A DNA stretch of 64,000 nt, taken from the NCBI RefSeq assembly GCF_011045215.1, contig NZ_CP049201.1; one strand, 5' to 3'. Below the pieces are notes generated by a model that was given only the letters and a program-made list of their open reading frames with translations, was not told the origin of the DNA and did no database searches. This DNA is from Escherichia coli (GTDB lineage Bacteria > Pseudomonadota > Gammaproteobacteria > Enterobacterales > Enterobacteriaceae). Made by a program: the position numbers and the translations under genes. Positions 5,044 through 30,320 of the stretch are shown piece after piece (the first letter of the stretch is position 1; the number at the start of each line of letters is the position of its first letter).

Positions 5044-5127
5044 ACCCCCTTGAACTTCGCCGGACGGCTATTTCCCACTTTGCTGATCTGGAGGCAGAGG
5101 CCGTCCGTATAAATGAGGAGATGAAGC

Positions 5128-7035: not shown

Positions 7036-7059
7036 CGCAGTCCTTTTTGAGGTCAGTCT

Positions 7060-12105: not shown

Positions 12106-12108
12106 TCC

Positions 12109-12642: not shown

Positions 12643-12791
12643 GTGCTGGGCGGGGATTCGTGATGACCGCAGAAGGCCCAACATTAACCTGTTTTTAATT
12701 CCGCTTACAGAACTGCATCAACCAGTTCCACAGTATCGATGAATTACAGTTGGTGGGCTGTTGGTGAGTAATTTTATTCAGGGTGATTTAT

Positions 12792-14313: not shown

Positions 14314-14367
14314 TGCAGAAATAACGAGCAAATGGCATCATTCCTGCTTTTGTCAGGGAGATCTACC

Positions 14368-15850
<1,483 letters not shown>

Positions 15851-15930
15851 CTAACCCTTTGAATTTACATAGCGCAAAAAGATACCTTTCCTCATAATGT
15901 GAGCTAATTTTATGTTTCGTTTGATGATCG

Positions 15931-15993
15931 GGTCGGTCTCGAAAACCGGAGTAGGGGCAACTCTACCGGGGTTCAAATCCCCCTCTCTCGCCA
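15931..15993 (+). tRNA. partial tRNA-Ser 3' fragment (serU-like anticodon/T-arm/acceptor 3' strand; pseudo-tRNA, probable prophage att core)
   Basis: GGTCTCGAAAACCGGAGTAGGGGCAACTCTACCGGGGTTCAAATCCCCCTCTCTCGCCA matches the 3' two-thirds of tRNA-Ser as recalled; the 5' acceptor/D-arm is absent. Confidence 0.6.
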
Positions 15994-16571
15994 CTTTATC
16001 AATGACTTATCTCCCGACTTCCCGTCTTGCTTTTCCTAAACAGAACAATCGTAGAATATTCTTGAAGGGTTAGATCGTCACTGTTTTCTGTTCGATACTG
16101 TGACATTCAGCACTTGATTCGCTATGGATCTGACAGGAAGGTTTTGAGCGAAAATCTGCAGTTATTCAGTCGTTTTCTTATCGGTCACCATTATTCTTTT
16201 AGACATTGATCCTACAAAGCTGCCGCAAAGTTGGTGGTGGGAACTGAAGTTGCGTAGAGAAGGGGTCAATACCCGGAGGCAAACATGGGCTGGCAAAAGT
16301 GTAGCGGTATTAGGCGCAGCTATTTAGCCTAGTTATGTTTTATGAAAACTTGATATCATATAAGTGTCTTACTTATTGGCTGTAAATAAGTTTTTCTAAG
16401 GAATTGTTTCTTGAGTATCATTTGTAACTGTAACGGAATTTATAATCCTTTGCTTTATTGTTACGGTATTTTTATCACACCCTATTTTTAGTGGTTTTTA
16501 TACTGAAGTTTGGCAAAGTGAACTTTATATACATATACTTCATCCTGTTTCAGTTAAATTGGGTGGATGAT

Positions 16572-17315
16572 ATGGCAACTACATGTTCAGTTATATTGAT
16601 TTTGGAGTCCTTTGATGTTTATTTCGGAAAAGAGAGTGTGTTTCTGGAGAGAGGTTCATCTGTACTTGTCGACTCTAGCTCTAGAGATTTTTTCCTGACA
16701 TATCCTGAAAGAGTGATAGTGGCGGATTTTGGCGCTGAGTTTATTAGTCGCTATTTGAAAGCTAATAACTTAAGGGATATTTCTGATTGTAGGGAATATC
16801 CATCTTATTTAAAAATAAACTTTGCTGACTTCAGTTTAATTAAAGGATTAATTAGTTGGGCTAATCACTGTGCTGAATACATAGAAATTTTTGATGAGTC
16901 TATTGCTTTTACATGTCTCTCTGCATTTTCTTCTGAAAAACAATTTGGAGTATTTCTGTTTGGATGTTTGAAAAGCACAGGGGCTAAAGTTAAAACGATT
17001 ATTCATACGGATTTATCTGCACCATGGCGTCTTAAGGATATATCATCAAGATTATATCTCAGCGAAAGTTTACTAAAGAGGAAATTGAAAGAAGAGGGGG
17101 TATCATTCAGTAAGATCATACTTGATGAGAGGATGCAAATGGCTGAATATTTACTCAGCACTCGTTGTTATCCTATTAGTAAAGTAGCTAAGGTCTGTGG
17201 TTATGCCAGTGTCTCATACTTTACTTATGTATTTAGACGTTATTTTGGTGTTTCTCCAAGTCAATACTCTCAGAGGAGTTCAGAAAGTAAAATTCTTACT
17301 CACCAGGGAATCTGA
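16572..17315 (+). CDS. AraC-family transcriptional regulator (AppY/EnvY/Rns-like)
   Basis: C-terminal HTH ...ISKVAKVCGYASVSYFTYVFRRYFGVSPSQY; N-terminus MATTCSVILILESFD aligns with the AppY start MDYVCSVVFICQSFD; AT-rich gene; the first 38 codons of track ORF 16458 are rejected. Confidence 0.8.
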   Translation: MATTCSVILILESFDVYFGKESVFLERGSSVLVDSSSRDFFLTYPERVIVADFGAEFISRYLKANNLRDISDCREYPSYLKINFADFSLIKGLISWANHCAEYIEIFDESIAFTCLSAFSSEKQFGVFLFGCLKSTGAKVKTIIHTDLSAPWRLKDISSRLYLSESLLKRKLKEEGVSFSKIILDERMQMAEYLLSTRCYPISKVAKVCGYASVSYFTYVFRRYFGVSPSQYSQRSSESKILTHQGI

Positions 17316-17321
17316 TCATTG

Positions 17322-17790
17322 TTCTTGCCCCCTTATTTCCAGACAGGGGGTGTATCTTAAGTTAACGTTACCCGCTGACGTCGATATTCTCGCGGAGAGC
17401 GATAACCCAACGCACTGTGCGGATGGTTTTCATTGTAATGTTCGATCGCCACTGCAAGATTATGCAATGCCGTTCTTACATTCGGTTTCGGCATGAACGC
17501 GATGTAGTCTTCCTTCATCGTTTTCACGAACCTTTCTGCAATTCCATTACTCTGAGGACTGCTGATTGCCGTTGTGCAGGGCTCCAGATTCAACTCTCTG
17601 GCGAACTGCCGTGTTTCATGCGCTCTATACGCTGAACCGTTATCTGTCAGCCACTGGATGGACTGTTCCGGTACTTTATCGCCAAAGCGTTTTTCTATCG
17701 CTCCTAACATGACATCCTGCACTGTCGCTTTATCGTAACCTCCCGTGCTTGCGGCCCAGTCTATGGCTTCACGATCGCAACAGTCCAGGG
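17322..17790 (-). mobile_element. IS2 remnant (terminal inverted repeat plus 3' part of the transposase gene; truncated)
   Basis: TTGCCCCCTTATTTCCAGACA end sequence at about 17326-17350; ORF 17357-17722 encodes an IS3-family integrase-core C-terminus (...[17 protein letters not shown]...); only about 0.45 kb of a 1.3-kb element is present. Right boundary is approximate. Confidence 0.55.
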
Positions 17791-18069
17791 CGATTCATCT
17801 GGGCCAATCCTCGCTCATAACAGGCATTCACTTCAGTCATGGCAGAAAGGTATGCATGCTGGAGAAGTCGTGAAAGAAAAGAAGACTGCTGCGCCGTTTG
17901 TCGTCACGTTTATCTTCATTGGCTATGCAAGTCGTAATACAAGGTGGGACAAAACTGAGACACATAAGGCCTCGCAATGGCTTGCAAGGCTTTACATGTT
18001 TTGATGTGGTGGGACGTGTGAGCGCAGTGTTGATGGGGTAATGCTTTGAATTAGAAGCGGATTCTTATA

Positions 18070-18115
18070 ATTCGTAATGCGAAGGTCGTAGGTTCGACTC
18101 CTATTATCGGCACCA
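18070..18115 (+). tRNA. partial tRNA-Thr (thrW) 3' fragment (pseudo-tRNA / att core)
   Basis: ATTCGTAATGCGAAGGTCGTAGGTTCGACTCCTATTATCGGCACCA equals the 3' 46 nt of thrW as recalled; the 5' half is replaced by unrelated sequence. Confidence 0.7.
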
Positions 18116-18280
18116 TTTCAACGTCTTTTCCCGTCTATTAAAATCCAAAAAACCCGCATATACTCTAGCTTTGAGCGCCCCCGATAGTGTTTTAACGTCT
18201 ATCAATATCTCCTAAAATCCACGTCTTTTGGGGGTATATTCGGGGGTATATGCTGTGTGGGCTACTGGAGATACCCCCAA

Positions 18281-19471
18281 ATGAAACTAAATGCCCGTCA
18301 GGTCGATACGGCCAAACCGAAAGAAAAACCCTATAAACTGGCCGATGGTGGTGGGCTTTATCTGCTTGTTAATCCCAATGGTTCCCGGTACTGGCGTTTA
18401 AAGTACCGGGTAGCCGGAAAAGAAAAGCTGTTGGCGCTGGGGGTATATCCCGATGTAACCCTGGCTGATGCCAGGGCGAAACGAGATGAGGCCAAAAGGG
18501 GTATGGCTGGGGGGATCGACCCGAACGAAGCGAAGCGGGAAGAAAAATTGAACCGCGAAGCGCAAATCAAAAACACCTTCGAAGAAATCGCCAGAGAGTG
18601 GCATACAGAACGGCAGAAGAAATGGTCTGAGGGGTACGCCTCGGACATTCTGGAAGCATTCAGTAAAGACATATTCCCTTGGATTGGAAAACGCCCCATC
18701 ACGGAAATAAAGCCCCTTGATTTGCTGAATACGCTTAAACGCATCGAGAATAGGGGAGCGACTGAAAAGGCCCGTAAGGTTCGCCAGTGGTGCGGGGAGG
18801 TCTGGAAGTATGCGATCGTTACCGCCCGCGCAGAATATAACCCCGCCCCTGATCTATCTGTGGCTATGGAAGGACACGAAGGGGAGCACTTCCCCCATCT
18901 GGAAGCCGAAGAGTTACCCGAATTTTTCCAGACGCTGGCGACGGCAAAAAGTAACGTTCAGGTTATTTTGGGGCTGCGTCTGCTTATTCTTGTGGGGTTA
19001 CGTCCGGTTGAATTACGCGCGGCCCCGTGGTCAGAGATTGATTTTGATAATGCCTTGTGGGAGATCCCCAAAGAGCGAATGAAGAAAAGACGTCCGCACG
19101 TTGTCCCGCTTTCTCGCCAGGCTATGGTTATTCTCGGGCAATTAAAAGAGTTGTCGGGCCGCAATCCTTTCATTTTTCCGGGCCGGAACGACCCGCGAAA
19201 GCCAATGAGTGAAGGAGCAATTAATCAGCTAATAAAGCGACTCGGGTATAAGGGCAAAGCTTGCGGGCATGGTTTCCGACATACCATGAGCACAATTTTG
19301 TATGAGAAAGGGTATAACACCGAATGGATCGAAACCCAGCTTGCACATGTTGATAAAAATACCATCCGTGGCACATATAATCATGCCCGCTATCTGGATG
19401 GACGCCGGGAAATGCTTCAATGGTATGCCGACTATATGGAATCGCTGGCGAGTGGCAGGGTAAAAGATTAG
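18281..19471 (+). CDS. P4-type tyrosine integrase
   Basis: MKLNARQVDTAKPKEKPYKLADGGGLYLLVNPNGSRYWRLKYR... is the canonical P4/CP4 integrase N-terminus; C-terminal HxxR...Y catalytic region present; lies 165 bp after the thrW fragment. Confidence 0.9.
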   Translation: MKLNARQVDTAKPKEKPYKLADGGGLYLLVNPNGSRYWRLKYRVAGKEKLLALGVYPDVTLADARAKRDEAKRGMAGGIDPNEAKREEKLNREAQIKNTFEEIAREWHTERQKKWSEGYASDILEAFSKDIFPWIGKRPITEIKPLDLLNTLKRIENRGATEKARKVRQWCGEVWKYAIVTARAEYNPAPDLSVAMEGHEGEHFPHLEAEELPEFFQTLATAKSNVQVILGLRLLILVGLRPVELRAAPWSEIDFDNALWEIPKERMKKRRPHVVPLSRQAMVILGQLKELSGRNPFIFPGRNDPRKPMSEGAINQLIKRLGYKGKACGHGFRHTMSTILYEKGYNTEWIETQLAHVDKNTIRGTYNHARYLDGRREMLQWYADYMESLASGRVKD

Positions 19472-19511
19472 AGAAGGTCTAAGACGGGAATACCGCTAAA
19501 TTAGATGTTAG

Positions 19512-19547
19512 GCGTGGACACTCAGCATCCACGCTTAAACTTTTTAT
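19512..19547 (+). terminator. rho-independent terminator of the integrase gene
   Basis: GCGTGGA-(9 nt)-TCCACGC hairpin followed by a T-rich tract (TTAAACTTTTTATT). Confidence 0.6.
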
Positions 19548-20041
19548 TATCATTTTCAATGAATTATGATTTTGGAAATTTTATAAAAAACACCAAGATT
19601 ACTAATCTATTGATTAATATGAAATATTTCTTTTTTTGATTATTAATTGTGCTCTTGATTGTTGTTTTTATGGTGTTAATTTATAAAAATCTTATTTATA
19701 GGAATTAACATTATATAGTTGGCACTTTTTGCTAAAATCTGTTTTTATTGTGTTTTATTTTTATTTCATTTTTGTTGTTGTTTGTTTGATTTTTAGTGTC
19801 TTTATATCTGGCTAATTGATTTCACTCAAACCATAAATCCTTTCAGAGGCTTCTAGAGTCTTCCTGAGGCTTAAATTGACTTAACTAAAAGTCAAGCCCC
19901 ACATCCCACATACATCTTTTTGACATGCACTTATGGCGTGAATAACAATGACTTCATCCAATCTACAGGCATCCTATAAAGTCAATGTCTGTATATAGAA
20001 AGATATTACATAACGTTTGAATGTTAATAGCGGGTGTGAAT

Positions 20042-20260
20042 ATGAGAAATGATGCAATGCAGCTTTTAAACCAGGGAAAAAGATTGATCCGCCTGCCTGA
20101 AGTTATGATGCTTACGGGGCGGTGTCGCGCCAGTATTTATAAAGATATCAATGCAAATGTCTTTCCAAAGCCGATTAAAACCGGCCCGCGTTCTGTCGCA
20201 TGGGTTGAGGGTGAGATCAGCGACTGGATCGACAACAAAATCAAAGAGCGCAAAGTGTAA
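20042..20260 (+). CDS. alpA: AlpA-family phage regulatory protein (excisionase-like)
   Basis: ...RLIRLPEVMMLTGRCRASIYKDINANVFPKPIKTGPRSVAWVEGEISDWI... matches the AlpA pattern; start is ambiguous (20042 or 20057). Confidence 0.75.
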   Translation: MRNDAMQLLNQGKRLIRLPEVMMLTGRCRASIYKDINANVFPKPIKTGPRSVAWVEGEISDWIDNKIKERKV

Positions 20261-20459
20261 ATCTGATTTTATTCAGAGATGAATATGATTTATTTGAATG
20301 CTAAGGATTTTGTGTATTCTTTTTGTTGTAAATACTCGTAGCATGGGGAGTTGGCAGTATTTATTCAGTATTAGGTTAAGTAGTGATAAAATACCAGGTA
20401 ATGCCGGTTTATGCAGTGTTTAATATATTTGTTGCTGGCGAAAATTTACGGAAAATTAA

Positions 20460-21332
20460 ATGAACATTACTGATATTATCAGCCATCGCGTATATCGTGA
20501 TGCGGATCTTGCTGTCATTAATAACACGGCATTTATTCAGCCTTATGACGGTTGTCACCGTGGGTTGTATGAAATGCGCGTTATTGAACTTTATCGCCTG
20601 AATAAAATGATGCACCTTACCCACGAATATAAATCTATTTCCGGGGAAAGCGTAGGCATTCCGGCGACTAAAGAGGAACTGTTTACACTGGTTAATAAAG
20701 GGCATGAACTTTGCCAGTCTGAACGGGAAAAGCTGGCGGCACTTGAAGCAGAATTGCAGCGTCTGCCAAGCCCGGCTGTAATTCCTGCGCCGCAGACGAT
20801 TAAAGAAGCACAGCAGGCCCGTAAATCACTAGAAGATGAAAGATACAGACTGCATCACGCAGCAATTAAAAATCAAGTCAAAGCACAGCAGGAAGAGTTA
20901 TCCATCAGACAAAACATTCTGGAATTGCTCGCGCCGGTTATTGATGTGTTGTTGGCCGTGGAAGATGTGGAACTGCTCGATCTGCGCCGTTCCCTGCCTA
21001 AGTCATCCCTCGATGCTAAGGCATTCAAAAAGGCGATTTCTGAAATTGAGTGTGCTGACCTTGCCTGGCAGAAAATGGATAAACTGGAGATTGCCCTTAA
21101 CAAGGTGGTGAACAACTGCACATATCGCCCGGAAGGAAGCATTAATCCCCGTTTTGTTAACCCTCTTAATGAAGATAAGCGGGAACGCGCCGAAATATCA
21201 CGCGATTATTACAGCTCTGAAATGGCCTTTATTCATACGGTGATGAGTGCAGATGAATATTTAAATTATATGTTGCCGATCCGTCACCAGCAGCGCGCGC
21301 AACGACTCACATTAGAAAGAAATATCAACTAA
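20460..21332 (+). CDS. hypothetical coiled-coil protein (possible capsid scaffold / size-determination factor)
   Basis: 290 aa with a long Gln/Glu/Leu-rich heptad-like central region; immediately upstream of, and on the same strand as, the capsid-like gene. Confidence 0.45.
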   Translation: MNITDIISHRVYRDADLAVINNTAFIQPYDGCHRGLYEMRVIELYRLNKMMHLTHEYKSISGESVGIPATKEELFTLVNKGHELCQSEREKLAALEAELQRLPSPAVIPAPQTIKEAQQARKSLEDERYRLHHAAIKNQVKAQQEELSIRQNILELLAPVIDVLLAVEDVELLDLRRSLPKSSLDAKAFKKAISEIECADLAWQKMDKLEIALNKVVNNCTYRPEGSINPRFVNPLNEDKRERAEISRDYYSSEMAFIHTVMSADEYLNYMLPIRHQQRAQRLTLERNIN

Positions 21333-21341
21333 GGAAGAATT

Positions 21342-22349
21342 ATGTCTTATGTAACACCAGATTATTTAACGCAGTATCACGAAAACCTGATTAAGTCTTT
21401 TAATATTAAATATAAAAACGAAGATACGGGGTATTTCACCATATCACAGCCGGAAAAAGCATCTCCGGATGCATGGGGATGTTCCACGCTTGATGTTAAA
21501 GGCTCGTCCTGGCTGATTGATAATATTTCATTACTGGACATTATCGGTGCGGATGGCACGACGATCACCATCGGTGATGGTTCCCTTTATACAGGCCGTG
21601 CAAAGGAAGGTCGCTTTCATAAGAAACTAAAAACCAACGGAACACCTTTTTTATTATCAGAAACGGATTCCTGCGCCTCATTGACTTATGAAGAAATGGC
21701 GGTAATGGCAAACGCGAAAAATTTCAGTAATGAAATGATCATTTTTTTCAAGAAGGCCGTGGTGCGGGATATGCTCCGTATTGGATTTAACGGCAAGATG
21801 ATTGCCGAAAATACCAACCCGGAACAATATAAAAACGGCGAAGATATCAATATTGGCTGGCACTCGCTGGCAAAAACATTCAATAACGGTTCACAAATTA
21901 TTTCTGATGCTTTCGCACTGGGGAAAGGCGGTGATTTTGCCGATGTTCACGATCTGGCTGATTGCCTCATCACGTCAAAAATCCCCGAAGGTCAGCGCGA
22001 AGATCCGGGCCTTGTGGTGATGGTTGGCGCGCAACTTGCCGCCCGCGAACGACTGAAACTGTTCAACATGGCCGATCAACCACTGACGCTGACGGCGGGG
22101 GATATGCTGACAAGCAGTGTCGCCGGTCGCTTTGCTTTTATCCCGCCGTTTATGCCGGGTAAGCGCCTGGCTGTTACGACGCTGAAAAATTTGCAGATCC
22201 TGACGCTGAAACACAGCCAACGCTACCGCGCGGAGGATATCCCGCAACGAGGTGTTTATGAGCATGGCTATTTACGTGAGGAAGGTTACGCGCTGGGGGA
22301 TGGCTATCTTTACGCGGCCAGCGATGAGAACGCCGTAACGCTGGTTTAA
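21342..22349 (+). CDS. P2 GpN-family major capsid protein homologue
   Basis: Segment LGKGGDFADVHDLADCLITSKIPEGQREDPGLVVMVGAQLAA parallels P2 gpN VGKGGDYASLDALVMDATNNLIEPWYQEDPDLVVIVGRQLLA (recalled from memory); FNGKM... also parallels gpN FNGVK... Confidence 0.6.
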   Translation: MSYVTPDYLTQYHENLIKSFNIKYKNEDTGYFTISQPEKASPDAWGCSTLDVKGSSWLIDNISLLDIIGADGTTITIGDGSLYTGRAKEGRFHKKLKTNGTPFLLSETDSCASLTYEEMAVMANAKNFSNEMIIFFKKAVVRDMLRIGFNGKMIAENTNPEQYKNGEDINIGWHSLAKTFNNGSQIISDAFALGKGGDFADVHDLADCLITSKIPEGQREDPGLVVMVGAQLAARERLKLFNMADQPLTLTAGDMLTSSVAGRFAFIPPFMPGKRLAVTTLKNLQILTLKHSQRYRAEDIPQRGVYEHGYLREEGYALGDGYLYAASDENAVTLV

Positions 22350-22561
22350 GTATCGAGTACAGCCAGCTTTGACAGTGATGGCCAGATAAAAGAAAACCCT
22401 CTCACCGGAACGAACAAGAAACGATAAGAGGGTTTATCAGGAAGATGATTCTACGTGATGAATTATACCGAGAAACAACCGATGCTTACCAGCAAAAACG
22501 CGTCACTGTTTGTGCAGCTGGCACCGTCCGATCTGACGGTGTTTTCCGGAATGGTAAGGAG

Positions 22562-22753
22562 CTATTCCTTTGCCTTTTTGCGCTGTTCTGCTTTCAGCTT
22601 GCGCCCGCAGGCATCCAGCACCCAAGCGGAAAAACTTGAACCCGGATTATCGACTTTTTCGCGTTCTACGCAGGCATCAATTTCTGCGATCATTTCATGC
22701 GGGAAGCGTATTCCCTTGTATGTTGTTTTGCTGTTTATGTGGTTTTTAGTCAT
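22562..22753 (-). CDS. putative small DNA-binding regulator (ribbon-helix-helix-like), about 63 aa
   Basis: MTKNHINSKTTYKGIRFPHEMIAEIDACVEREKV... has RHH-like strand-helix character; divergent from the downstream operon with operators between; start codon uncertain (M15/M24/M33 of the track ORF). Confidence 0.45.
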   Translation of the reverse strand: MTKNHINSKTTYKGIRFPHEMIAEIDACVEREKVDNPGSSFSAWVLDACGRKLKAEQRKKAKE

Positions 22754-22769
22754 GCTGGAAACTCTTAAG

Positions 22770-22870
22770 TGTTTAAACATCAGTAAAGATACAGTAAAGC
22801 CGGACATAACAAAACTGTTTAAACAAAATCTGTTGACTTGTTTAAACACTCAGCATAATGTGTTTAAACA
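22770..22870. promoter_or_regulatory. operator array: four copies of the palindrome TGTTTAAACA within divergent promoters
   Basis: Exact copies at 22770-22779, 22816-22825, 22839-22848 and 22861-22870; TTGACT (22833-22838) and CATAAT (22854-22859) hexamers interleave with the right-hand pair. Confidence 0.6.
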
Positions 22871-22960
22871 GTTTGCTACGTTGCAAACTGAAAAAACGAA
22901 GCCCGGCAGTGTTGACGCACTAACCGGGCCTCTGACCAACACGTTATTAGGAGTAACGCT

Positions 22961-23164
22961 ATGGCTAGCCATCAGTGTAACCAAACTCGCCCTAAAAATC
23001 GCCTATTTCTCTTTCTCGCGGTATCACGGGCCGACATGCAGGACAAACCACACCGCGAACAAATCACCGCGTACAGCGAACAGGAAGCCCGTTCCATGCT
23101 GGCCGGTCGCTTTATCCTCTGCTTTGCTGGCCGTCTGCCGGTTCAGGAGGTGCACCATGTTTAA
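22961..23164 (+). CDS. hypothetical protein (67 aa), first gene of the coupled operon
   Basis: AGGAG 7-8 nt upstream of the ATG; stop overlaps the next start (ATGTTTAA). Confidence 0.4.
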   Translation: MASHQCNQTRPKNRLFLFLAVSRADMQDKPHREQITAYSEQEARSMLAGRFILCFAGRLPVQEVHHV

Positions 23165-23405
23165 CCCACTGGACAACCGCAAAGCGGCGGCGCTTAACCC
23201 GTTCCACGATGACTGTTACGATCCGCCAGCCTTTATTAAACCGGGTTCAAAAGTAGTGGTTGAAATTGATTCCCGGGAAATGGAGGTCGCTATTCTAGCC
23301 GCTTATGACTACGGACTGGACGCGCTGAACGACGATGGCCGGGAAGAGCTTAACCGCTTAATTGCTGACCTGAAAGACAAGATAACGGAGGCGCGGTATG
23401 CATAA
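23158..23405 (+). CDS. hypothetical protein (82 aa)
   Basis: Strong SD (caGGAGGtg) before the ATG at 23158; acidic protein; the rest of track ORF 22455-23405 is rejected. Confidence 0.55.
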
Positions 23406-23823
23406 TCTGCTTAATTCACCGTTGCCAGTGTCTATGGATCTCTTTCAGGCTGGCGAGATGTGCGGGCATTTTGTCGCGCGGTTAACGGATGAAAGTTGTG
23501 TTGACGAGACTGAACGCGTCGCACTTTGCGGACGTCTGGCTTTTGCCCTGCGTTCTCTTTCATCTCTTTGTGATACAGACTATCCATCGCATATCCAGGC
23601 GCAATTAACCGCGACTGCTATTCCTGCTCCCTGCGTACCTGATGAGTGGATCGACGCGACGATCATGACGGGCTATTGCACCGCCTTAAATGATGCGCTG
23701 CTTAGTCGCTCCCTTCGTATGGACGTTGAAACACAATTACGCTGGCTTTTGCATGACATGATTAATTTACTTGTCAGATATCTGAAACAGCCTTGTATTA
23801 AGGCGGGAGTAGATCATGTCTGA
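23398..23823 (+). CDS. hypothetical protein (141 aa)
   Basis: Start overlaps the previous stop by 8 nt; Cys-containing; no known motif. Confidence 0.55.
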   Translation: MHNLLNSPLPVSMDLFQAGEMCGHFVARLTDESCVDETERVALCGRLAFALRSLSSLCDTDYPSHIQAQLTATAIPAPCVPDEWIDATIMTGYCTALNDALLSRSLRMDVETQLRWLLHDMINLLVRYLKQPCIKAGVDHV

Positions 23824-24214
23824 AATTATGCTCACACCGTTTCACGTTGACCGCCATTTTTACGATCTGGTTTACGGTGCTTCATTTTTTGCGGATGCAT
23901 TACCTGCAATGAATGATATCAAGCAGCAGCGGCTTTATTGTCGATTATTGCAATTAAATCTGGTTGTTTTATTTGAAAAACGGTCGCGGGATATTCCCCC
24001 AATTCAGTCGAGTAAAATAAAAATCGCTGATGAGGTTATATTTCTTAATGTCGATAATATTTATCATGCGCTTTCCCTGACTGCCGGGCTGATAAGTCAG
24101 GATATCAGTAAGGGGATGGAAAAAGAACTGGCTGAATATATCAGGGATATTATTAGTATTATTTTTAATGAAATGCGAATGCAGATGGTTGATTATGATC
24201 CATATGAAATGTGA
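23816..24214 (+). CDS. hypothetical protein (132 aa), AT-rich gene
   Basis: Start overlaps the previous stop by 8 nt; composition shifts to AT-rich. Confidence 0.5.
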   Translation: MSEIMLTPFHVDRHFYDLVYGASFFADALPAMNDIKQQRLYCRLLQLNLVVLFEKRSRDIPPIQSSKIKIADEVIFLNVDNIYHALSLTAGLISQDISKGMEKELAEYIRDIISIIFNEMRMQMVDYDPYEM

Positions 24215-24310
24215 GACGAATAAAACAATAATCGATTTATAAGAACTGAAAAATATTTAATTATAACCGTATTTTAACGGGGGATAATTACGCCCCTGTA
24301 AGGAAAATAT

Positions 24311-24580
24311 ATGTCTGATTTGAATACCATTGCTGTTAATAGTGCTGAAAAATATCTTAGCCTTGAGTGCTTCCATAAACTCAACCGCGCAAGGAATGTT
24401 TCATTCCAGATGCATTTACAGATCCGTCAGTGTGAGATAAACGGCCTGCCACTTTTATGGATTCCAGATATTTTCAGCTATATCAGCGAAGACATATCCG
24501 CCGTTCTGGAAGAAGCCAAAGTACTTGGCCTTTGCGATAAGTTCACAGGCGAAGCCCGGATCGGTCAGGTCAGTCTTTAA
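24311..24580 (+). CDS. hypothetical protein (89 aa)
   Basis: Same strand, between the coupled operon and the primase gene. Confidence 0.45.
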   Translation: MSDLNTIAVNSAEKYLSLECFHKLNRARNVSFQMHLQIRQCEINGLPLLWIPDIFSYISEDISAVLEEAKVLGLCDKFTGEARIGQVSL

Positions 24581-24643
24581 TTTTTTGTATTCCGCGCCGC
24601 CCGCTGCGGCGCATTGTCTTACCCATTAATAAAGGTCATACCG

Positions 24644-27376
24644 ATGCAAGGTAAAAAAGTTTCACAGACAGCAGGACGCGCGGCGGGCCAGTGGGAAAAT
24701 ATTCTTGAACACCTGGGGATTACTGTTCCTGCGGGTGGTCTTCATGGCCCCTGCCCGATCTGCGGCGGTAAAGATCGTTTTCGCTTTGATAATAAAAAAG
24801 GGCGTGGAACCTGGTTCTGCAACCAGTGCGGCCACGGTGACGGGCTGGATCTGGTCAAACTGGCGCTTTCGCTGGACACCGGGCCAGCCGCTGATCGAGT
24901 TGCTGAATTACTTCCGGCCCTTCCTCCGCCTGCGGTCATGCAGCCTGCCAGAAAAGAAGCCAGTGACGAAGGTCGCCCACATGACTACTGGCAACGCCTC
25001 TTTGCCCGTACTCAGCCGGGGGAAAGCCCTTACCTTACGGCGCGGGGGCTGACAGGTTTTGAACTGCCGCTGACCGTTCAGGAGATGAAAACCGCTGGCG
25101 GTGTTTTTCCGGCTGGTTCGCTTTTATTACCGATCACGGACACCGAAGGACGGATGACCGGTGCACAGCTTATCGGCCCGGACAAGGTAAAAGGCTTATG
25201 TGCTGGCACCAGGAAAAAAGGGCGTTTTATCTCTGTCGGGCCGTTCCCGGAGAAAATGCCCGCGCGGATCATTATCTCGGAAGGCTTTGCCACTGCGTTA
25301 AGCGCATCCCTGCTTTCAGAGGGCTGGAGTATTGCGGCGCTGGATAAAGGCAACCTGAAAGACGTTGCGGAGCAAATCCGCCAGAAATGGCCGGACGTGC
25401 AGATCGTTATTGCCGGTGATAATGACTTTTCTGACGGTAAACCCAATCAGGGGAAAGAGTCTGCGATCAAAGCTGCACTGGCCGTTAAGGGATGGATGAC
25501 CATTCCTCCCGGACGGATCAAAGTTGACTGGGATGATTACCGCCGTGAATTTGGCCTCCAGCGCGCCCGTGACGCATTCGCGGAAGAACTGCTTAACCCG
25601 GCAGACACCGAAACGCGTTTACCGCATGGTTTCCGCCTGACGAAGGATTATCTTTGGTTTGATCGCCCGCTCAGTGACGGTAGCGAAAGCGGCCAGACTC
25701 GCCAGGTGAAGATATGTAGCCCGCTCAAAGTGACGGCCATCACCAGCGACGGCGAAGGCGGTAAATTCGGGCGTCTGCTTGAGTGGGAAGACTCCAGCGG
25801 ATTACGGCATGAATGGGCGATGCCAATGACAGTGCTTGCCGGAAGCGGTCAGGAGCTGCGGGAGGTTCTGCTTGATAACGGAATGCACTTTATCAGCGTG
25901 AACGGCGCGGCGCGTAGCTATCTGATGGAATACATTTCTAACTGTCGCCCGGTTCGCCGCGTCACCTGCGTTGAAAAAACAGGCTGGTTTAGCGGTGCGT
26001 ATGTTCTCCAGGATGAGGTGATCGGCAGCGATGCCGGATCGGTCATCCTCCAGTCTGCTATGTCGTCTAAAAATGACTTCCGGGTGAGCGGAACGGTGGC
26101 GGAATGGGCGCAACACGTCGGGCGCTATTGTGCCGGAAATTCCCGCCTGGTGTTCTGCGTCAGTCTGGCGCTGGCCGCGCCGTTACTGAATATTATTGGT
26201 GTTGGCGGCGGCGGTTATCACCTTAAGGGCGAATCCACGGACGGCAAGACAACCACAATGAAGGTAGCGGCGTCTGTCTGCGGCGGGCCTGATTTCTGGA
26301 AAACGTGGCGGGCAACCGGAAACGCGCTGGAAGGTATTGCGCTACGCCGTAATGATGCCGCCCTGATGCTGGATGAAATCAGCGAAGTTGACGGCAGAGA
26401 GGCTAGCCGGATCGCCTATATGCTGGGGAACGGGCAGGGCAAAGCAAGGGGGCGCGTTGATGGCAGCGTCCGCGATCCGGTGACCTGGACATTGCTTTAC
26501 CTGTCCACCGGGGAAATCTCTATTGCGGAACATGCCGCCGAAGCCGGAGAAAAGCGAACCGGCGCGGGTGTCGGTGTGCGTATGGTGCAAATCCCCAGCG
26601 ATACCGGAAAACATGGCGCTTTCGAAAATCTCCACGGCATGGAAGGCGGTAAAGCGTTTGCGGAATACCTTGAACAGACCTGTAAACAATATTACGGCGC
26701 GCCGTTCCGCGAATGGTTGCGCTGGCTGGCGGCAAATCTGACGGAAACCGCGAACCGGGCGCGGGCAATGAAAAAAGAGTATGAACGGACATTATTACCC
26801 GAAGATTCCGGCAAGCAGGTTGGGCGCATTGTGGATCGCTTTGCACTGTTGGCCGTTGCGGGGGAACTGGCGAGTGAAGCGGGGATCACAGGCTGGCAAC
26901 CAGGAGAAGCGTATAACGCTGCAAGAAGCTGTCTGGCGGCATGGCTTAACGATCGTGGACATGCGGCCAACCAGGAAGAAGCCGACGCGCTGGAGAAGGT
27001 GCGGCGCTTTATTACGGCCAATCAGTACACACGCTTTGCTGACTGGTATGACGAGAAAAACCGCCCGTCAAATATGGTTGGCTTTCGCCGGGTGGAGAAA
27101 GGCGGGAACGGTATTGGCATGAGCAAAAAGGAGAACAGCGGCGATACTGTTAAAGACGGGGACGCCACTAAAGAGCCGGAAACCACATTTTATATCCTGC
27201 CCAGCGGATGGAAGGAAATTTGCGGGACGTCGGACAGCGTTAAAACGGCGAGACTATGCGACGAGGCTGGATGGCTTGTAAAGGATGAAGATCGCCAGCG
27301 CCTACAACGTACAGTAAGACTACCGGAAATTGGCTTAAAGAAAGTGTATGTGTTCAGCGGCGAAGTGATCGGATAA
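24644..27376 (+). CDS. P4 alpha-type DNA primase/helicase (zinc-binding, Toprim and P-loop helicase domains)
   Basis: CPICGGKDRFRF...WFCNQCGHGDG zinc motif; Toprim-like IISEGFATALSA...IAGDNDF; Walker-type region further downstream; true start ATG 24644 (the track ORF begins at a TTG). Confidence 0.9.
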   Translation: MQGKKVSQTAGRAAGQWENILEHLGITVPAGGLHGPCPICGGKDRFRFDNKKGRGTWFCNQCGHGDGLDLVKLALSLDTGPAADRVAELLPALPPPAVMQPARKEASDEGRPHDYWQRLFARTQPGESPYLTARGLTGFELPLTVQEMKTAGGVFPAGSLLLPITDTEGRMTGAQLIGPDKVKGLCAGTRKKGRFISVGPFPEKMPARIIISEGFATALSASLLSEGWSIAALDKGNLKDVAEQIRQKWPDVQIVIAGDNDFSDGKPNQGKESAIKAALAVKGWMTIPPGRIKVDWDDYRREFGLQRARDAFAEELLNPADTETRLPHGFRLTKDYLWFDRPLSDGSESGQTRQVKICSPLKVTAITSDGEGGKFGRLLEWEDSSGLRHEWAMPMTVLAGSGQELREVLLDNGMHFISVNGAARSYLMEYISNCRPVRRVTCVEKTGWFSGAYVLQDEVIGSDAGSVILQSAMSSKNDFRVSGTVAEWAQHVGRYCAGNSRLVFCVSLALAAPLLNIIGVGGGGYHLKGESTDGKTTTMKVAASVCGGPDFWKTWRATGNALEGIALRRNDAALMLDEISEVDGREASRIAYMLGNGQGKARGRVDGSVRDPVTWTLLYLSTGEISIAEHAAEAGEKRTGAGVGVRMVQIPSDTGKHGAFENLHGMEGGKAFAEYLEQTCKQYYGAPFREWLRWLAANLTETANRARAMKKEYERTLLPEDSGKQVGRIVDRFALLAVAGELASEAGITGWQPGEAYNAARSCLAAWLNDRGHAANQEEADALEKVRRFITANQYTRFADWYDEKNRPSNMVGFRRVEKGGNGIGMSKKENSGDTVKDGDATKEPETTFYILPSGWKEICGTSDSVKTARLCDEAGWLVKDEDRQRLQRTVRLPEIGLKKVYVFSGEVIG

Positions 27377-27419
27377 GACCTGCTGACACCGCTATAACTA
27401 ACGGTGTTGGCCAGCTTCC

Positions 27420-27700
27420 GGCCCTGGAAACATAGCCAGCCAGGAAGAAGTGATCGCACGTATCATATTTTTTAGTGGAAACAGTGGGAACATAGGGAAC
27501 AGACTTGATTTATAAAGGTTTTATTTGTTCCCAATTACTGTTCCCATATGGTAACAGGTGGTAATGTATTTTAAATCATATGGTTATGTTGATATGCAAA
27601 GCGTTGTTCCCAGTTGTAAAAGAGAGATGGGAACAGGAAAAAGGTATAAATATCAACACTGTTACCATTGTTCCCACTGTTTCCACCATTTTTGACAATA
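27420..27700. repeat. iteron cluster (GGGAACA / TGTTCCC heptamers), putative replication origin or cis replication region
   Basis: At least 7 exact copies in both orientations plus variants (GGAAACA, TGTTACC, TGTTTCC) within about 280 bp directly after the primase gene; resembles P4 ori/crr TGTTCACC iterons. Confidence 0.55.
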
Positions 27701-27724
27701 ACAATATTTAATTTCGGGGAAAAT

Positions 27725-27741
27725 GCTTTTCCCTGGCTGGC
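27725..27741. repeat. 17-bp direct repeat, left copy (GCTTTTCCCTGGCTGGC)
   Basis: Exact copy of 30005-30021; lies 20 bp upstream of the P2-like integrase start. Confidence 0.5.
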
Positions 27742-27760
27742 TAACATCAAAGGTAAAGAA

Positions 27761-28726
27761 ATGAGCATTAAGAAACGTCCTGATGGAAAATGGCTGGTAG
27801 ATATGCGGCCCGCAGGTCGTAAAGGAAAACGTATTCGCAGGGTTTTTAACAGGAAATCGGAGGCCCTGGCATTTGAGATGTATTACCTGGTCCGTTCTCA
27901 ATCGCCGGAATGGGCAACGAACTTCACAGACCGCAGATTATTAAGCGATTTGCGTAAAACATGGTGGGACCTGTTTGGACACGCCAGAAATAACGCAGAA
28001 ACTGAAAAGCGCCAGCTTGATAAAACCATCCGGCAGATGGGAGATCCACCAGTTAACCGGCTTACAATCCGCTTCATTCTGGAATTCAGAGCAGGCCGTG
28101 TTTCAGGGAAATTAAAGGCATCCACGATAAATCGCGATATGTACCGGTTATCAGGCATGTTTACCGAATTAATTAAAGCAGGTGAGTGTAAAAATAATCC
28201 GTTCCGTAGTCTTGAACCGTTAAAGGAAGAACCTTCCGCAGTAACGTTTCTGACCCACGAAGAAATTAGCATGTTACTGGAAAAACTGGAGGGAGATTCG
28301 CGTAAGCTGGCGTTACTGTGTCTTAATACTGGGGCGCGTTTCAGTGAAGCCGCGAATCTAACGGCTGAAATGGTTAACAACCGTCGTGTAACGTTTATTA
28401 AGACAAAGAACGGGAAGCAGCGGACAATACCCATTTCATCTGAACTCGAAAAGGAAATAAAAACAAAAAATTCAGGTCAACTTTTCACGGTGGATTATAA
28501 ATGGTTTTCCCGCAGGTTGAAGGCAATCAAACCGGATTTACCGGATGGACAGGCAACGCATGTATTACGACATACTTTCGCCAGTCATTTCATTATGAAT
28601 GGGGGAAATATTGTTGTATTAAAAGAGATTCTTGGACATGCCAATATTCAGCAAACTATGATTTATGCACACTTTGCGCCTGAATTTCTGGCGCAGGCTG
28701 TAACATTGAATCCATTTAGTAAGTAA
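27761..28726 (+). CDS. P2-like tyrosine integrase
   Basis: MSIKKRPDGKWLVDMRPAGRKGKRIRRVFNRKSEALAFE... parallels P2 Int MAIKKLDDGRYEVDIRPTGRNGKRIRRKFDKKSEAVAFE (from memory); C-terminal HxLRHTFASHF...Y region present. Confidence 0.85.
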   Translation: MSIKKRPDGKWLVDMRPAGRKGKRIRRVFNRKSEALAFEMYYLVRSQSPEWATNFTDRRLLSDLRKTWWDLFGHARNNAETEKRQLDKTIRQMGDPPVNRLTIRFILEFRAGRVSGKLKASTINRDMYRLSGMFTELIKAGECKNNPFRSLEPLKEEPSAVTFLTHEEISMLLEKLEGDSRKLALLCLNTGARFSEAANLTAEMVNNRRVTFIKTKNGKQRTIPISSELEKEIKTKNSGQLFTVDYKWFSRRLKAIKPDLPDGQATHVLRHTFASHFIMNGGNIVVLKEILGHANIQQTMIYAHFAPEFLAQAVTLNPFSK

Positions 28727-28754
28727 CTGCGGATTTTCTTTTGAATGTACAAAA

Positions 28755-29012
28755 CTAACGTTGAAGTAATTCTTTCATGACCGTTTTTTGTTCCGGCGTC
28801 ATCATGTCAATCATTGTTTTTACTGCTTTATCCCCAGTCAGAGCGCTGGGGCTTAGCGTATGGGAGAACGTCATATTCATAACGAAGGTATGCCCACATT
28901 CAACATTATTACAGGCACAATACATATCAGACAGGTGGGGATGCTTGCGCACTGTCTTTTTTGTTGTTGAATTACTTCCACACTCAGGACAAACAATTTT
29001 ATGGCTGCGCAT
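28755..29012 (-). CDS. Ogr/Delta-family zinc-finger transcriptional activator
   Basis: CPECGSNSTTKKTVRKHPHLSDMYCACNNVECGHTF: a CxxC...CxxxxC zinc finger typical of P2 Ogr / P4 Delta; convergent with the integrase, 28 bp apart. Confidence 0.8.
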   Translation of the reverse strand: MRSHKIVCPECGSNSTTKKTVRKHPHLSDMYCACNNVECGHTFVMNMTFSHTLSPSALTGDKAVKTMIDMMTPEQKTVMKELLQR

Positions 29013-29430
29013 AATAATCACCACTCGTAAAAGGCGCATTATTATACCACTATTTGCATTAAACAAAAAAAAGAAATTGATATAAATTATCAATAATATC
29101 ATCGTGTTATGTCATTCCATTCTTTCTTTGCTTTTAACTTAGTGTCACGCAATTTGATTTTTTTTGTTTTAATTTTCATATGGTTACGTTATTTTGATTA
29201 AAGATTGAATTTTACGATGACTGTAATTATTGAAATCCTTTTCAACTGATTGCATTTTTTTCAGTCTCAAATTTCATGTAAAACCCCGTTTAACGCCTGT
29301 TCTGGCGCTTCTTTCCTGCAATTTTCCAAACTGAAAAAATTCTCACTACGTAAACACCGTGGGCGTGCGGGTGAGCGCGGTTTTGGTCCCGCTGGCGTTT
29401 GCGTCGTAACAAGTCAGAAACATACAACCA

Positions 29431-29452
29431 CATGTACAACTAGCTGTACATA
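29431..29452. promoter_or_regulatory. putative YefM-type operator (paired TGTACA hexamers)
   Basis: caTGTACAactagcTGTACAta lies 45 bp upstream of the antitoxin start. Confidence 0.45.
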
Positions 29453-29495
29453 TGCAATACTTACGACGTAATAACTTGGCGGACGGAAAAACACT

Positions 29496-29741
29496 ATGCA
29501 ACACGTAAACTATACCGATGCTCGACAGCATTTAGCTGACCTGATGCAGCAGGCTAATGATGATCGTGCGCCAATCCTGGTTACGCGTAAGGGTGCTAAA
29601 AGCGTAGTAATGATCGATGCGGAAGAGTTCGCATCGATTCAGGAAACGTTACACCTGTTCAGTAACCCGGCGAACGCCGCACACATTGAAGCCAGCCTTG
29701 CATCGCTCGAACGCGGCGATTATGAGGAACTGGACATTTAA
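29496..29741 (+). CDS. type II antitoxin, Phd/YefM family
   Basis: 81 aa; ...RAPILVTRKGAKSVVMIDAEEFASIQETLHLFSNPANAAHI... matches the YefM pattern; 1-nt overlap with the toxin gene. Confidence 0.85.
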   Translation: MQHVNYTDARQHLADLMQQANDDRAPILVTRKGAKSVVMIDAEEFASIQETLHLFSNPANAAHIEASLASLERGDYEELDI

Positions 29742-30001
29742 TGAAAGTCAGGATATCCCCGCAGGCAAAAGGCGATCTTCAGTACTGGGCTGAGAATGAC
29801 CCAAAGACGTATAACAAGGTAATGGAGCTAATCAAATCGGCTAAGGAAAGCCCCTTCAAGGGGATAGGGAAGCCGGAGGCGCTAAAGCATCGTAAGCCGC
29901 TTTGGTCACGTCGAATCACGAAAGAACATCGCCTGGTGTATTACGTTGAGCAAGGCGATCTGTACATTGTTGCGTGTCGCTATCACTACACCACGATTTA
30001 A
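29741..30001 (+). CDS. type II toxin, YoeB/Txe family mRNA interferase
   Basis: 86 aa; ...GIGKPEALKHRKPLWSRRITKEHRLVYYVEQGDLYIVACRYHY is the conserved YoeB C-terminus. Confidence 0.85.
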   Translation: MKVRISPQAKGDLQYWAENDPKTYNKVMELIKSAKESPFKGIGKPEALKHRKPLWSRRITKEHRLVYYVEQGDLYIVACRYHYTTI

Positions 30002-30004
30002 ACA

Positions 30005-30021
30005 GCTTTTCCCTGGCTGGC
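30005..30021. repeat. 17-bp direct repeat, right copy (GCTTTTCCCTGGCTGGC)
   Basis: Exact copy of 27725-27741; begins 4 bp after the yoeB-like stop. Confidence 0.5.
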
Positions 30022-30320
30022 GGGTTTACCTTAACTTTGCCAGCACTGTTTAAACGCCCGCCGCTCTCTCCCAAATACAGTATAAAAAGCAATCAATTAT
30101 TGTGGACGTAAAAGCGCATGGGGGTACAATTGGGGGTACGTTGGTTATCCATTATGTAATAAATTCATAATAAACATGGTGTTATATTGCATGTTTAACT
30201 CTTATTATCTACCCCATATTCAAATACACCACGTTTCCTCCTGTGCCGTATTTATGCCATTGTAACCCTGGCAATTAATCAAAATACTGTTCTGACATCA
30301 GGCAATGCAGGTGCAGACAT

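Follow-up and report, generated by a model that had tools for sequence, protein, structure and literature searches.

Background

The arm repeats of the satellite phage P4 were reportedly first described by Pierson and Kahn in 1987. In the P4 reference record (NC_001609) they are annotated as "attP arm sequence repeat" features. The phage targets leuX, and its core comprises the last 20 nt of this tRNA gene; one tandem pair of 12-nt units lies 53 nt from the core on the far arm, a second pair lies 112 nt from it on the int side, and 15 nt from the latter is a single inverted unit (3915-3926) just upstream of int, within which the annotated int start falls. Seven components have been used to describe a P4-like satellite, namely int, psu, delta, sid, alpA, epsilon and alpha (PMC8628076).

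A second relevant system is the IntS/TorI module of KplE1 (CPS-53), a defective prophage at argW of E. coli K-12 studied by Panis et al. 2010 (PMC2951348), who mutated the previously characterised IntS arm-type and TorI sites of its attL. Because the integrase gene of KplE1 points away from the tRNA, its control region and attL overlap. Its arm sites comprise a direct pair with 12-bp spacing and, after it, two inverted copies, the last of which abuts the ATG. The sites of TorI, the recombination directionality factor (RDF), fall into two blocks in the interval that separates the core from these arm sites. The motifs are GGGTAAAA for the arm sites and GTTCG for the RDF. The int gene of KplE1 is repressed by both Int and the RDF (PMC2951348), and the same paper describes negative autoregulation by P4 Int and KplE1 IntS from sites in equivalent positions.

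The phage-inducible islands (PICIs) of Gram-negative bacteria offer a third point of comparison (Fillol-Salom et al. 2018, PMC6092414; Mageeney et al. 2023, PMC10111431). In these 10-20 kb islands int, alpA and the primase gene form a common backbone, and the origin follows the primase; 21 of the 29 reference PICIs encode a major capsid homologue (PMC6092414, PMC10111431), and some occasionally carry extra integrase genes resembling those of helper phages. Capsid-forming PICIs (cf-PICIs) are recognized by a complete head module consisting of capsid, protease, portal, connectors and small terminase.

Results and Discussion

Boundaries of the island and its insertion site

The window analysed here is a 64,000-nt stretch of Escherichia coli DNA, in which an earlier note had proposed an approximately 12-kb island bounded by a fragment of thrW. 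Alignment against an island-free E. coli locus (L001) upholds this proposal and defines the ends to the base: because the match stops at 18118 and resumes at 30210, the island proper occupies 18119-30209 (Table 1) and begins directly after the thrW fragment. The same element, 95-99% identical, is present in L002, L003, L004 and L008, and in two of these, the strains of L003 and L004, it adjoins an intact thrW; the empty site and these two copies agree with the proposed ends. The thrW fragment is identical to the thrW 3' end of L003, L004 and K-12 and is also found in the island-free locus, and ARAGORN detected no intact tRNA gene in the window. The last 20 nt of the fragment (18096-18115, GACTCCTATTATCGGCACCA) constitute the attL core of the island, and the fragment is probably also the attR remnant of a myovirus-type prophage on its left.

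Based on these boundaries, the integrase and the end repeats, we consider it very probable that a P4-related phage satellite has entered the thrW 3' end by means of a heterobivalent tyrosine integrase of the P4 family, and that the GGGGGTAY units at its ends are the arm-type binding sites of that integrase. Among the features of a P4-type attachment site, an arm-domain tyrosine integrase, the P4 repeat arrangement and a Vis/AlpA gene were found here. The integrase contains the Pfam domains Arm-DNA-bind_3 (2.6e-28), Phage_int_M and Phage_integrase, belongs to PHROG 1, and shares 43% identity with P4 Int, the N-terminal arm domains of the two being nearly the same.

Table 1. Features of the thrW-linked island and its ends, in window coordinates
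Feature	Position	Strand	Remarks
thrW 3' fragment	18070..18115	+	46 nt, anticodon loop to CCA
Island proper	18119..30209	+	12,091 bp (~12.09 kb); very probable P4-related phage satellite
GTCT motifs	18123..18226	+	four on the same strand (18123, 18133, 18197, 18223), in two blocks
P' arm	18228..18251	+	two contiguous 12-nt units, TTGGGGGTATAT and TCGGGGGTATAT; proposed integrase arm-type sites
Inverted arm-type unit	18269..18280	-	AGATACCCCCAA on + strand; proposed site
int	18281..19471	+	heterobivalent tyrosine integrase, 396 aa
alpA/vis-like gene	20042..20260	+	helix-turn-helix; candidate excisionase
Uncharacterised gene	20460-21332	+	290-aa all-helical protein; capsid module (20460..22349)
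Major capsid protein gene	21342-22349	+	P2 family (gpN-like); PHROG 70 at 3.7e-72
epsilon-like gene	24311-24580	+	derepression; 45% identical to P4 epsilon
alpha-like gene	24644-27376	+	primase/helicase; primase domain 37% identical to P4 alpha; PHROG 1139
GGGAACA/TGTTCCC repeats	27478..27690		iterated, downstream of alpha; read from sequence
Variable region	27668..29012		second integrase convergent with zinc-finger gene
Second integrase gene	27668-28726	+	P2-phage-type; Pfam Int_N, Phage_integrase
Zinc-finger gene	28755-29012	-	Ogr/Delta-like; homologues annotated Ogr/Delta
Phd/YefM-YoeB pair	29496..30001	+	toxin-antitoxin; NCBIfam TIGR01552 and TIGR02116, both above cut-off
P arm	30118..30141	+	two contiguous 12-nt units, ATGGGGGTACAA and TTGGGGGTACGT; proposed integrase arm-type sites
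attR core, shortened	30198..30209	+	ACTCTTATTATC; 3' part of the 20-bp core lost, as are 14 nt of native thrW downstream sequence

The damaged right end

While the attL core is complete, the attR of the window retains only 12 nt of the core, 11 of which match. A match of 15 out of 20 positions between 30197-30216 (AACTCTTATTATCTACCCCA) and the thrW 3' end had been noted previously; the segment 30198-30209 within it is indeed homologous to the core, whereas its final 7 nt belong to the flank and agree with the core accidentally, having fallen under the core alignment because 22 bp of the other copies are deleted here. In three other copies the attR core is present with gaps of 1-3 nt, and where the other copies read AACTCTTATTATCG-CACCATTTAAATCAA..GTTAC the window goes from TATC straight to TACCCCAT. 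This last segment (30210-30217), once taken for an inverted degenerate copy of the arm motif, is also present in the empty site and is chromosomal flank.

Since the 22-bp deletion has shortened the attR core, this copy is probably impaired in, or incapable of, excision, and its att arrangement may no longer be functional. We incline slightly to the stronger view that the element is a grounded remnant with a fossil att architecture, which can no longer leave the window: the lost 22 bp take in the 3' part of the core together with native downstream sequence, an identical junction is absent from 27 other attR sites in IMG/VR, and an attP junction of the element was not found in that database. Against this, all core genes are full length in comparison with three other copies, the arm sites are intact, and, should strand exchange take place within TATTATC, the identity that is left could still be enough. 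This question bears on the present state of the element and not on the nature of its repeats.

Architecture and conservation of the end repeats

At the left end GGGGGTAT occurs in direct orientation at 18230-18237 and 18242-18249, 12 bp apart, followed by the inverted copy ATACCCCC at 18271-18278, and at the right end GGGGGTAC occurs at 30120-30127 and 30132-30139 with the same spacing. The earlier note had placed all of these exactly, but its statement that the inverted copy overlaps the integrase start codon does not hold, as the last base of the copy falls 2 nt short of the ATG at 18281. A distance of 112 nt separates the P' units from the core end, precisely as in P4, and the inverted unit is 17 nt from the P' pair (15 nt in P4), in a position equivalent to that of its P4 counterpart; the P arm pair is 55 nt from the attR core (53 nt in P4). 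Both elements use the final 20 nt of a tRNA gene as their core. They differ in this region in the target gene, in one base of the arm motif (GGGGGCAY in P4) and in the int start, which in P4 is annotated inside the inverted unit and in the island lies just downstream of the 8-mer. The KplE1 attL likewise has two direct sites 12 bp apart and an integrase gene that points away from the tRNA, with attL overlapping its control region; however, it has two inverted copies where the island has one, both its arm and its RDF motifs are different, and its integrase is only ~44% identical to that of the island, KplE1 being a defective prophage and not a satellite.

The pairs and the inverted copy are conserved in every copy of the element, and are retained both in islands with unrelated cargo and in ~40 more distant relatives, so that the suggested check of the repeats in other copies comes out in favour of the proposal. 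Across ~45 loci at several different tRNAs the direct pair is found at -51/-52 from the int start and the inverted copy 1-3 nt ahead of the int start codon in every relative, and an ATG or GTG is kept at this position, while the non-coding DNA around the repeats has diverged. The P-arm pair lies 54-61 nt from the attR core in P4 and in four further loci (L005, L025, L046 and L069) with unrelated spacers. With the geometry constant, the 8-mer varies in concert at all positions, being GGGGGTAY, GGGGGCAT/ATGCCCCC, GTGTATAG/CTATACAC or ACGGTATA/TATACCGT in different lineages. Residue 29 of Int is Leu in combination with GGGGGTA and Glu with GGGGGCA, a possible case of recognition covariation with the arm motif drawn from only two lineages of the GGGGGCA type. 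A further direct copy inside int, at 18439, is probably a coding coincidence, because it is missing from relatives that are 84% identical.

Control of int expression

The int gene reads away from the tRNA; the P' sites occupy the 50 bp upstream of it, and the inverted unit sits between the GGAG Shine-Dalgarno sequence (18267-18270) and the ATG. A consensus scan found no sigma-70 promoter between the core and int. Int bound at the P' sites, including the inverted one between ribosome-binding site and start codon, would probably lower its own expression; negative autoregulation of int is plausible because P4 Int and KplE1 IntS repress their own genes from equivalently placed sites.

The same position allows for an explanation at the RNA level, in which the GGGGGTAT copies upstream of int would not be protein-binding DNA sites but would act mainly as RNA, with direct copy 2 pairing with the inverted copy in the int leader and thereby hiding the Shine-Dalgarno sequence and the ATG to limit translation. 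The two copies can fold into a hairpin of -16.3 kcal/mol over GGAG and ATG, and a report cited in PMC2951348 has Vis acting on the int mRNA of P4. This hairpin, however, does not exceed shuffled sequence in stability (z = -0.21), the complementarity in relatives stops at the motif edge, and both the identical pair 55 nt from the attR core and the first copy of the tandem would be left unexplained. We therefore regard this explanation as quite improbable, though an RNA role could co-exist with DNA binding.

The integrase, the candidate excisionase and the GTCT array

The AlpA-like protein encoded downstream of int matches the PHROG entry "excisionase and transcriptional regulator" and is 39% identical to P4 ORF88/Vis; in almost every relative an AlpA homologue is encoded after int. 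Besides the arm motif, GTCT also keeps its positions, and it lies between the core and the P' sites. All 14 of 14 diverse relatives have it at about -148, and most also have it near -85, with 37 occurrences observed against 4.3 expected, always in one orientation, and it remains unchanged where the arm motif changes. Because this array parallels the two TorI site blocks on the KplE1 attL, the GTCT motifs are candidate binding sites for the AlpA/Vis-type excisionase.

It might be supposed that the GGGGGTAY units are themselves bound by the AlpA/Vis-type regulator or another island protein instead of the integrase arm domain, particularly since AlpA accompanies Int so regularly that co-variation with island lineage cannot by itself separate the two. 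We deem this very unlikely, as the KplE1 sites in the equivalent place are IntS arm-type sites, with the different TorI motif between them and the core, a place that in the island is taken by the GTCT array. The N-terminal Arm-DNA-bind_3 domain of Int, the annotated layout of P4 and the KplE1 IntS sites all sustain the original identification of the repeats as arm-type sites of attL and attR.

On the preferred integrase reading, and by analogy with P4 and KplE1, the catalytic domain of Int would act on the 20-bp core at the end of the tRNA, while its N-terminal domain would bridge to the two tandem P-arm sites ~55 nt away (now in attR) and to the two tandem and one inverted P'-arm sites ~112 nt away (now in attL). 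The phased GTCT array between the core and the P' sites would then be the likely docking place of the AlpA/Vis-type excisionase.

Single GGGGGTAY 8-mers number 9 in the window against 2.8 expected, including lone ones at 10301, 17096 and 51079, and pairs with 12-bp spacing number exactly 2, one per island end. That the repeats are chance or functionless low-complexity G-runs can be dismissed, since the paired pattern is expected only 0.01 times per window and its position, spacing and orientation are kept over dozens of diverged relatives in which the motif changes in concert.

Gene content and relationship to other satellites

Counterparts of P4 Vis, of epsilon, of the primase domain of alpha and of an Ogr/Delta zinc finger occur in the island, and of the seven components of P4-like satellites it has homologues of int, alpA, epsilon and alpha. 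It differs from P4 in its gene order and in its additional genes for a capsid protein of the gpN family and for a second integrase of P2 type. Psu and Sid had no PHROG or NCBIfam match among the island proteins scanned, which included some of the small ORFs at ~22350-23400. The island also differs from P4 in that no P2/P4 cos sequence and no Rfam-detectable RNA of any family were found in it. The iterated GGGAACA/TGTTCCC repeats are a probable replication origin, because their place matches that of the ori and crr repeats beside alpha in P4. The 85-aa zinc-finger protein has a single finger and matches P4 delta weakly (30% over 44 aa, E = 2e-5); its size is Ogr-like and not Delta-like. The second integrase, in which Pfam finds no arm-type domain, is 51-60% identical to integrases of P2-like phages, and the segment 27811-28761 does not align with L002.

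The capsid protein scores 157 bits against TIGR01551, under the family cut-off, and is at most ~49% identical to phage capsid proteins. The adjacent 290-aa protein has no match in Pfam, PHROG or PDB, and its profile gives a probability of 0.4% against P4 Sid and Psu. The island resembles the PICIs in size, in its int-alpA-primase backbone with the origin after the primase, in encoding a major capsid homologue and in the extra integrase; unlike theirs, its capsid gene belongs to the P2 (gpN) family and is located in the interval from alpA to the primase. Of the cf-PICI head module only the capsid homologue is present, together with the 290-aa protein, and no portal, protease or terminase was found among the ORFs. 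Its homologues of epsilon and Ogr/Delta suggest that the helper is P2-like, again unlike the PICIs.

A wider and rather doubtful possibility is that P2-like phages have a so far uncharacterised lineage of P4-related satellites across Enterobacterales, to which the island belongs. Its members would lack Sid and Psu and have their own gpN-family capsid, paired with the all-helical 290-aa protein, which is conserved and might serve as a scaffold, as well as a helper-type integrase and ogr. In the same tentative vein, the deletions of 1-22 bp that cluster within the CGGCACCA segment of the attR cores of these satellites may be an integrase scar that progressively grounds copies like this one.

The finding is real but ordinary, the layout having long been known from P4, and the accepted view of how such systems work stays unchanged. 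The island ends are now fixed to the base, and the end repeats can be read as arm-type sites at which an integrase of the P4 family docks. A rule for such integrases emerges: one tandem pair lies near -52, a single inverted copy closely precedes the start codon, and another pair is placed ~55-60 nt ahead of the attR core. The rule can be used to locate island ends and to read the arm motif of each integrase. The defined ends and the reading of the repeats should aid the annotation of islands linked to thrW, a common kind in E. coli and Salmonella. The related thrW-linked islands examined here carry defence cargo.

Boundaries and genomic setting of the satellite

Comparison by megablast with 5,426 complete E. 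coli genomes, which yielded both comparisons called for in the earlier note, an empty site and other copies of the element, establishes the ends of the island directly. In E. coli PapM-32-1 (the island-free locus L001) the same flanks occur with nothing between them; the alignment extends up to 18118 and resumes at 30210, and the island therefore occupies 18119-30209 (12,091 bp). This bears out the delimitation by thrW and the end repeats proposed in the earlier note, all coordinates of which proved exact when the sequence was re-read. The finding is real and was correctly delimited and interpreted: it is a new P4-related satellite at thrW with a classical P4-type attachment-site architecture.

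The thrW 3' fragment at 18070-18115 comprises the final 46 nt of the gene, from the anticodon loop to CCA, and ARAGORN detects no intact tRNA in the whole window. Such fragments are the type of duplication left by myovirus-type prophages, and CP4-6 of E. coli K-12 terminates in an identical one. On the left of the island a myovirus-type prophage is represented by its tail and baseplate genes, and on the right lies conserved chromosome with the LysR, pao and ecp genes. Given this succession of prophage, thrW fragment, satellite and chromosome, the locus is a tandem array at thrW. The left prophage contributes sheath, tape measure, DNA circularisation protein and baseplate J genes to 1-17800; comparison with related loci places a tail-fibre segment and an invertase gene after these, and the intact thrW end of the prophage falls outside the window. 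Three other genomes among the 5,426 contain the same satellite at 95-99% identity, namely JNEC-KY203 (L002), where the context is that of the window, and Z1323HEC0462 (L003) and Eco_24-2013 (L004), where it lies directly downstream of proBA and an intact thrW.

Features of the satellite and its surroundings (window coordinates unless a locus is named; L002-L004 are other copies of the satellite, L005 and L006 thrW islands with unrelated cargo)
Feature	Coordinates	Remarks
AraC-family gene	about 16572-17315	between left prophage and island
Truncated IS-type "integrase core domain" pseudogene	about 17357-17791	after the AraC-family gene
Same-strand GTCT motifs	18123, 18133, 18197, 18223	between core and arm pair
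Dense GGGAACA/TGTTCCC iterons	27478-27690	directly 3' of the alpha-like primase gene
Second tyrosine integrase, P2-phage type	27668-29012 (block)	no arm-type Pfam domain; segment varies between copies
Phd/YefM-YoeB toxin-antitoxin pair	29496-30001	last gene pair before attR
Gapped attR/junction cores	window 30198-30210; L002 17899; L003 16704; L004 16233; L005 about 10971; L006, L213, L215, L216	

Architecture and conservation of the proposed arm-type sites

At the left end of the island GGGGGTAT is found at 18230 and 18242, with an inverted copy, ATACCCCC, at 18271-18278, and at the right end GGGGGTAC is found at 30120 and 30132. As a single 8-mer the motif is found 9 times in the window, where 2.8 would be expected; for the pair spaced by 12 bp the expectation is 0.01 per window, and it is found exactly twice, once at each island end. 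The inverted copy had been thought to overlap the int start codon; it in fact stops 2 nt before ATG 18281, which it abuts, and lies 3' of the GGAG at 18267-18270. This ATG is the int start, an ATG or GTG being retained there in relatives and annotated 396-aa homologues beginning at the same point. The supposed inverted degenerate copy of the right end (TACCCCAT, 30210-30217) belongs to the chromosomal flank, because it is also present in the empty site of L001, and in the 15/20 match to thrW homology to the core is confined to ACTCTTATTATC (30198-30209), the remainder being unrelated by descent. Inside int, two candidates for additional arm sites were rejected: a further GGGGGTAT at 18439, which is not retained in 84%-identical relatives, and a pair with 2 mismatches at 18497.

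The reading of these repeats as integrase arm-type sites is supported by the arm-binding domain of the integrase, by concerted covariation in relatives and by positional identity with P4 and the K-12 prophage KplE1. Int contains the Pfam domains Arm-DNA-bind_3, Phage_int_M and Phage_integrase, and shares 43% identity with P4 Int, the N-termini being nearly identical. In the P4 record (NC_001609), features labelled "attP arm sequence repeat" are annotated in the same arrangement: a tandem 12-nt pair precedes the 20-bp core by 53 nt (55 nt in our element), a second tandem pair follows the core by 112 nt (exactly the same distance here), and an inverted unit lies another 15 nt on (17 nt here), at the int start. 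The P4 motif, GGGGGCAY, differs from GGGGGTAY by one base, and the reconstructed attP of our element aligns collinearly with that of P4. The KplE1 attL follows the same plan, with GGGTAAAA and GGATAAAA 12 bp apart and then two copies of TTTTACCC, the last abutting the intS ATG; Panis et al. 2010 (PMC2951348) regard these repeats as the arm-type P' sites of IntS, of which P'1 overlaps the -10 box.

The repeats recur in other elements of this kind. Three E. coli thrW islands with unrelated cargo (L005-L007), whose integrase genes are about 84% identical in DNA, retain the attL pair, the inverted copy and an attR pair, and the non-coding DNA around the retained repeats has diverged. A scan of IMG/VR yielded 80 loci with integrases 40-100% identical. 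Among those examined, each locus that includes upstream sequence and whose integrase reaches about 47% identity or more has an 8-mer pair, 11-12 bp apart, at -51 to -54, and in each of these an inverted copy lies 0-3 nt 5' of the start codon. Elements with this layout occupy several different tRNAs. In loci whose right end is available, the P arm carries a pair with the same motif 54-61 nt ahead of the attR core, the intervening A/T-rich spacers being unrelated. The 8-mer itself varies in concert at all positions: GGGGGTAY is found in most relatives, GGGGGCAT with ATGCCCCC in L081, GTGTATAG/GCGTATAG with CTATACAC in L058-L078, and ACGGTATA with TATACCGT in L084. At residue 29 of Int (18365-18367), the x of the conserved GGGLYL-x-V strand in the arm-binding domain, all GGGGGTA-type elements have Leu and both GGGGGCA-type elements (P4 and L081) have Glu; judged from this correlation, the residue may make a direct base-recognition contact.

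A different account, in which direct copy 2 and the inverted copy form a hairpin in the int leader, is possible but unremarkable: the hairpin is no more stable than shuffled sequence (z = -0.21), and it does not account for the pair at the far end.

Candidate excisionase sites and proposed control of int

A GTCT motif is present at about -148 in 14 of 14 diverse relatives and at about -85 in most of them, with neighbours 10-11 bp away; in these relatives 37 are observed against 4.3 expected, and the motif stays when the arm motif changes. In KplE1 two blocks of sites for the TorI excisionase separate the core from the arm sites (PMC2951348). The AlpA/Vis homologue encoded at 20042-20260 shares 39% identity with P4 Vis, and the GTCT motifs, which correspond in position to the TorI blocks, are its candidate binding sites.

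We propose that the N-terminal domain of Int would bind the five GGGGGTAY units and bridge them to the core, and that AlpA, bound to the GTCT arrays, would direct excision. Int bound 5' of its own gene would also be expected to lower int expression. In KplE1 intS is repressed by both IntS and TorI, and P4 Int likewise represses int by binding DNA at similar positions, the P4 excisionase Vis being thought to act on the int mRNA (PMC2951348). A consensus scan of 18000-20500 found no sigma-70 promoter between the core and int; the sole good match in this interval is a near-consensus TTGACA-18-AACAAT at 19920-19949, facing alpA. The 550-bp non-coding gap from int to alpA (19472-20020) is very A/T-rich, with long T-runs at 19550-19800.

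State of the attR core

The attR of L003 reads AACTCTTATTATCG-CACCATTTAAATCAATAAGTTAC, and similar forms occur in L002 and L004. In the window TATC runs straight into TACCCCAT, a 22-bp deletion by which the core has lost its 3' part and the native sequence downstream of thrW 14 nt. The four copies of this satellite have four different attR cores. More generally, where a P arm of this family of integrases is followed by a pseudo-core, that core usually departs from thrW within CGGCACCA: 11 contexts have the form CG-CACCA, several others have gaps of 1-4 nt and just 4 are wild type. Of 14 contexts with the 46-nt thrW fragment of the other prophage type, 12 have the wild-type sequence. The gapped cores reflect either an imperfect P-side core in attP, with exchange in CACCATT, or a hotspot of damage or scarring at the exchange site. 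The core variants do not fix the crossover point, because wild-type and gapped cores are found with identical arms. A search of IMG/VR for an excised attP junction of this satellite found none; junctions of related elements are present there, but these could be tandem arrays. If exchange takes place in CACCATT, the window copy cannot excise, and we lean slightly towards regarding it as grounded.

Gene content and relatives of the satellite

The satellite shares with P4 homologues of Int, Vis, epsilon (45% identical) and the alpha primase domain (37% identical), and encodes a small zinc finger of the Ogr/Delta type. The iterons that follow alpha are probably the replication origin. Neither psu nor sid was found among the scanned island proteins by PHROG search, or by hhalign in the case of the 290-aa protein described below; the P2/P4 cos sequence is absent even with up to 3 mismatches allowed, and an Rfam search of the island (E <= 0.1) gave no match, so that no P4-type immunity RNA was detected. 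Against the seven-gene definition of P4-like satellites (PMC8628076), the element has at most five components.

A major capsid gene of the gpN (P2) family shares no more than about 49% identity with phage capsids, or about 41% when its full length is compared. It is preceded by a gene for a conserved, all-helical 290-aa protein (the pair occupies 20460-22349; confident AlphaFold model, pLDDT 83). Identification of this protein as Sid, Psu or a known scaffold was rejected on the lack of any Pfam, PHROG, PDB-sequence or Foldseek match and of hhalign similarity; it could be a scaffold. The pair is also found at 1661-3554 of L090 and 9106-11005 of L091, and recurs in satellites from Salmonella, Pectobacterium, Enterobacter and others.

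The second integrase is 51-60% identical to those of SEN4/SEN5 and fiAA91-ss, and its gene is convergent with the ogr-like gene, just 28 nt from the stop codon of the latter. The segment looks like an int-ogr block captured from a P2-like phage without its attP. The toxin-antitoxin pair is 100% conserved in all copies of the satellite and could stabilise the island.

The backbone of alpA, a protein of roughly 288 aa, capsid, primase and Ogr is also found in Pectobacterium, and at thrW in Salmonella with a retron or GmrSD as cargo. Gram-negative PICIs with capsid genes or with additional helper-like integrases have been described before, and our literature search found no paper describing this satellite lineage; only the eroded attR cores and the lineage with its own capsid gene might reward further work. 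Two short unannotated "phage" records, OR850877.1 and OR845435.1, from E. coli O157 and Salmonella Kentucky, match the satellite capsid protein at ~43% identity, and sibling records with the same phage names (OR851147.1 and OR845519.1) match the integrase at about 45%; these records may be related satellites from induced particles.
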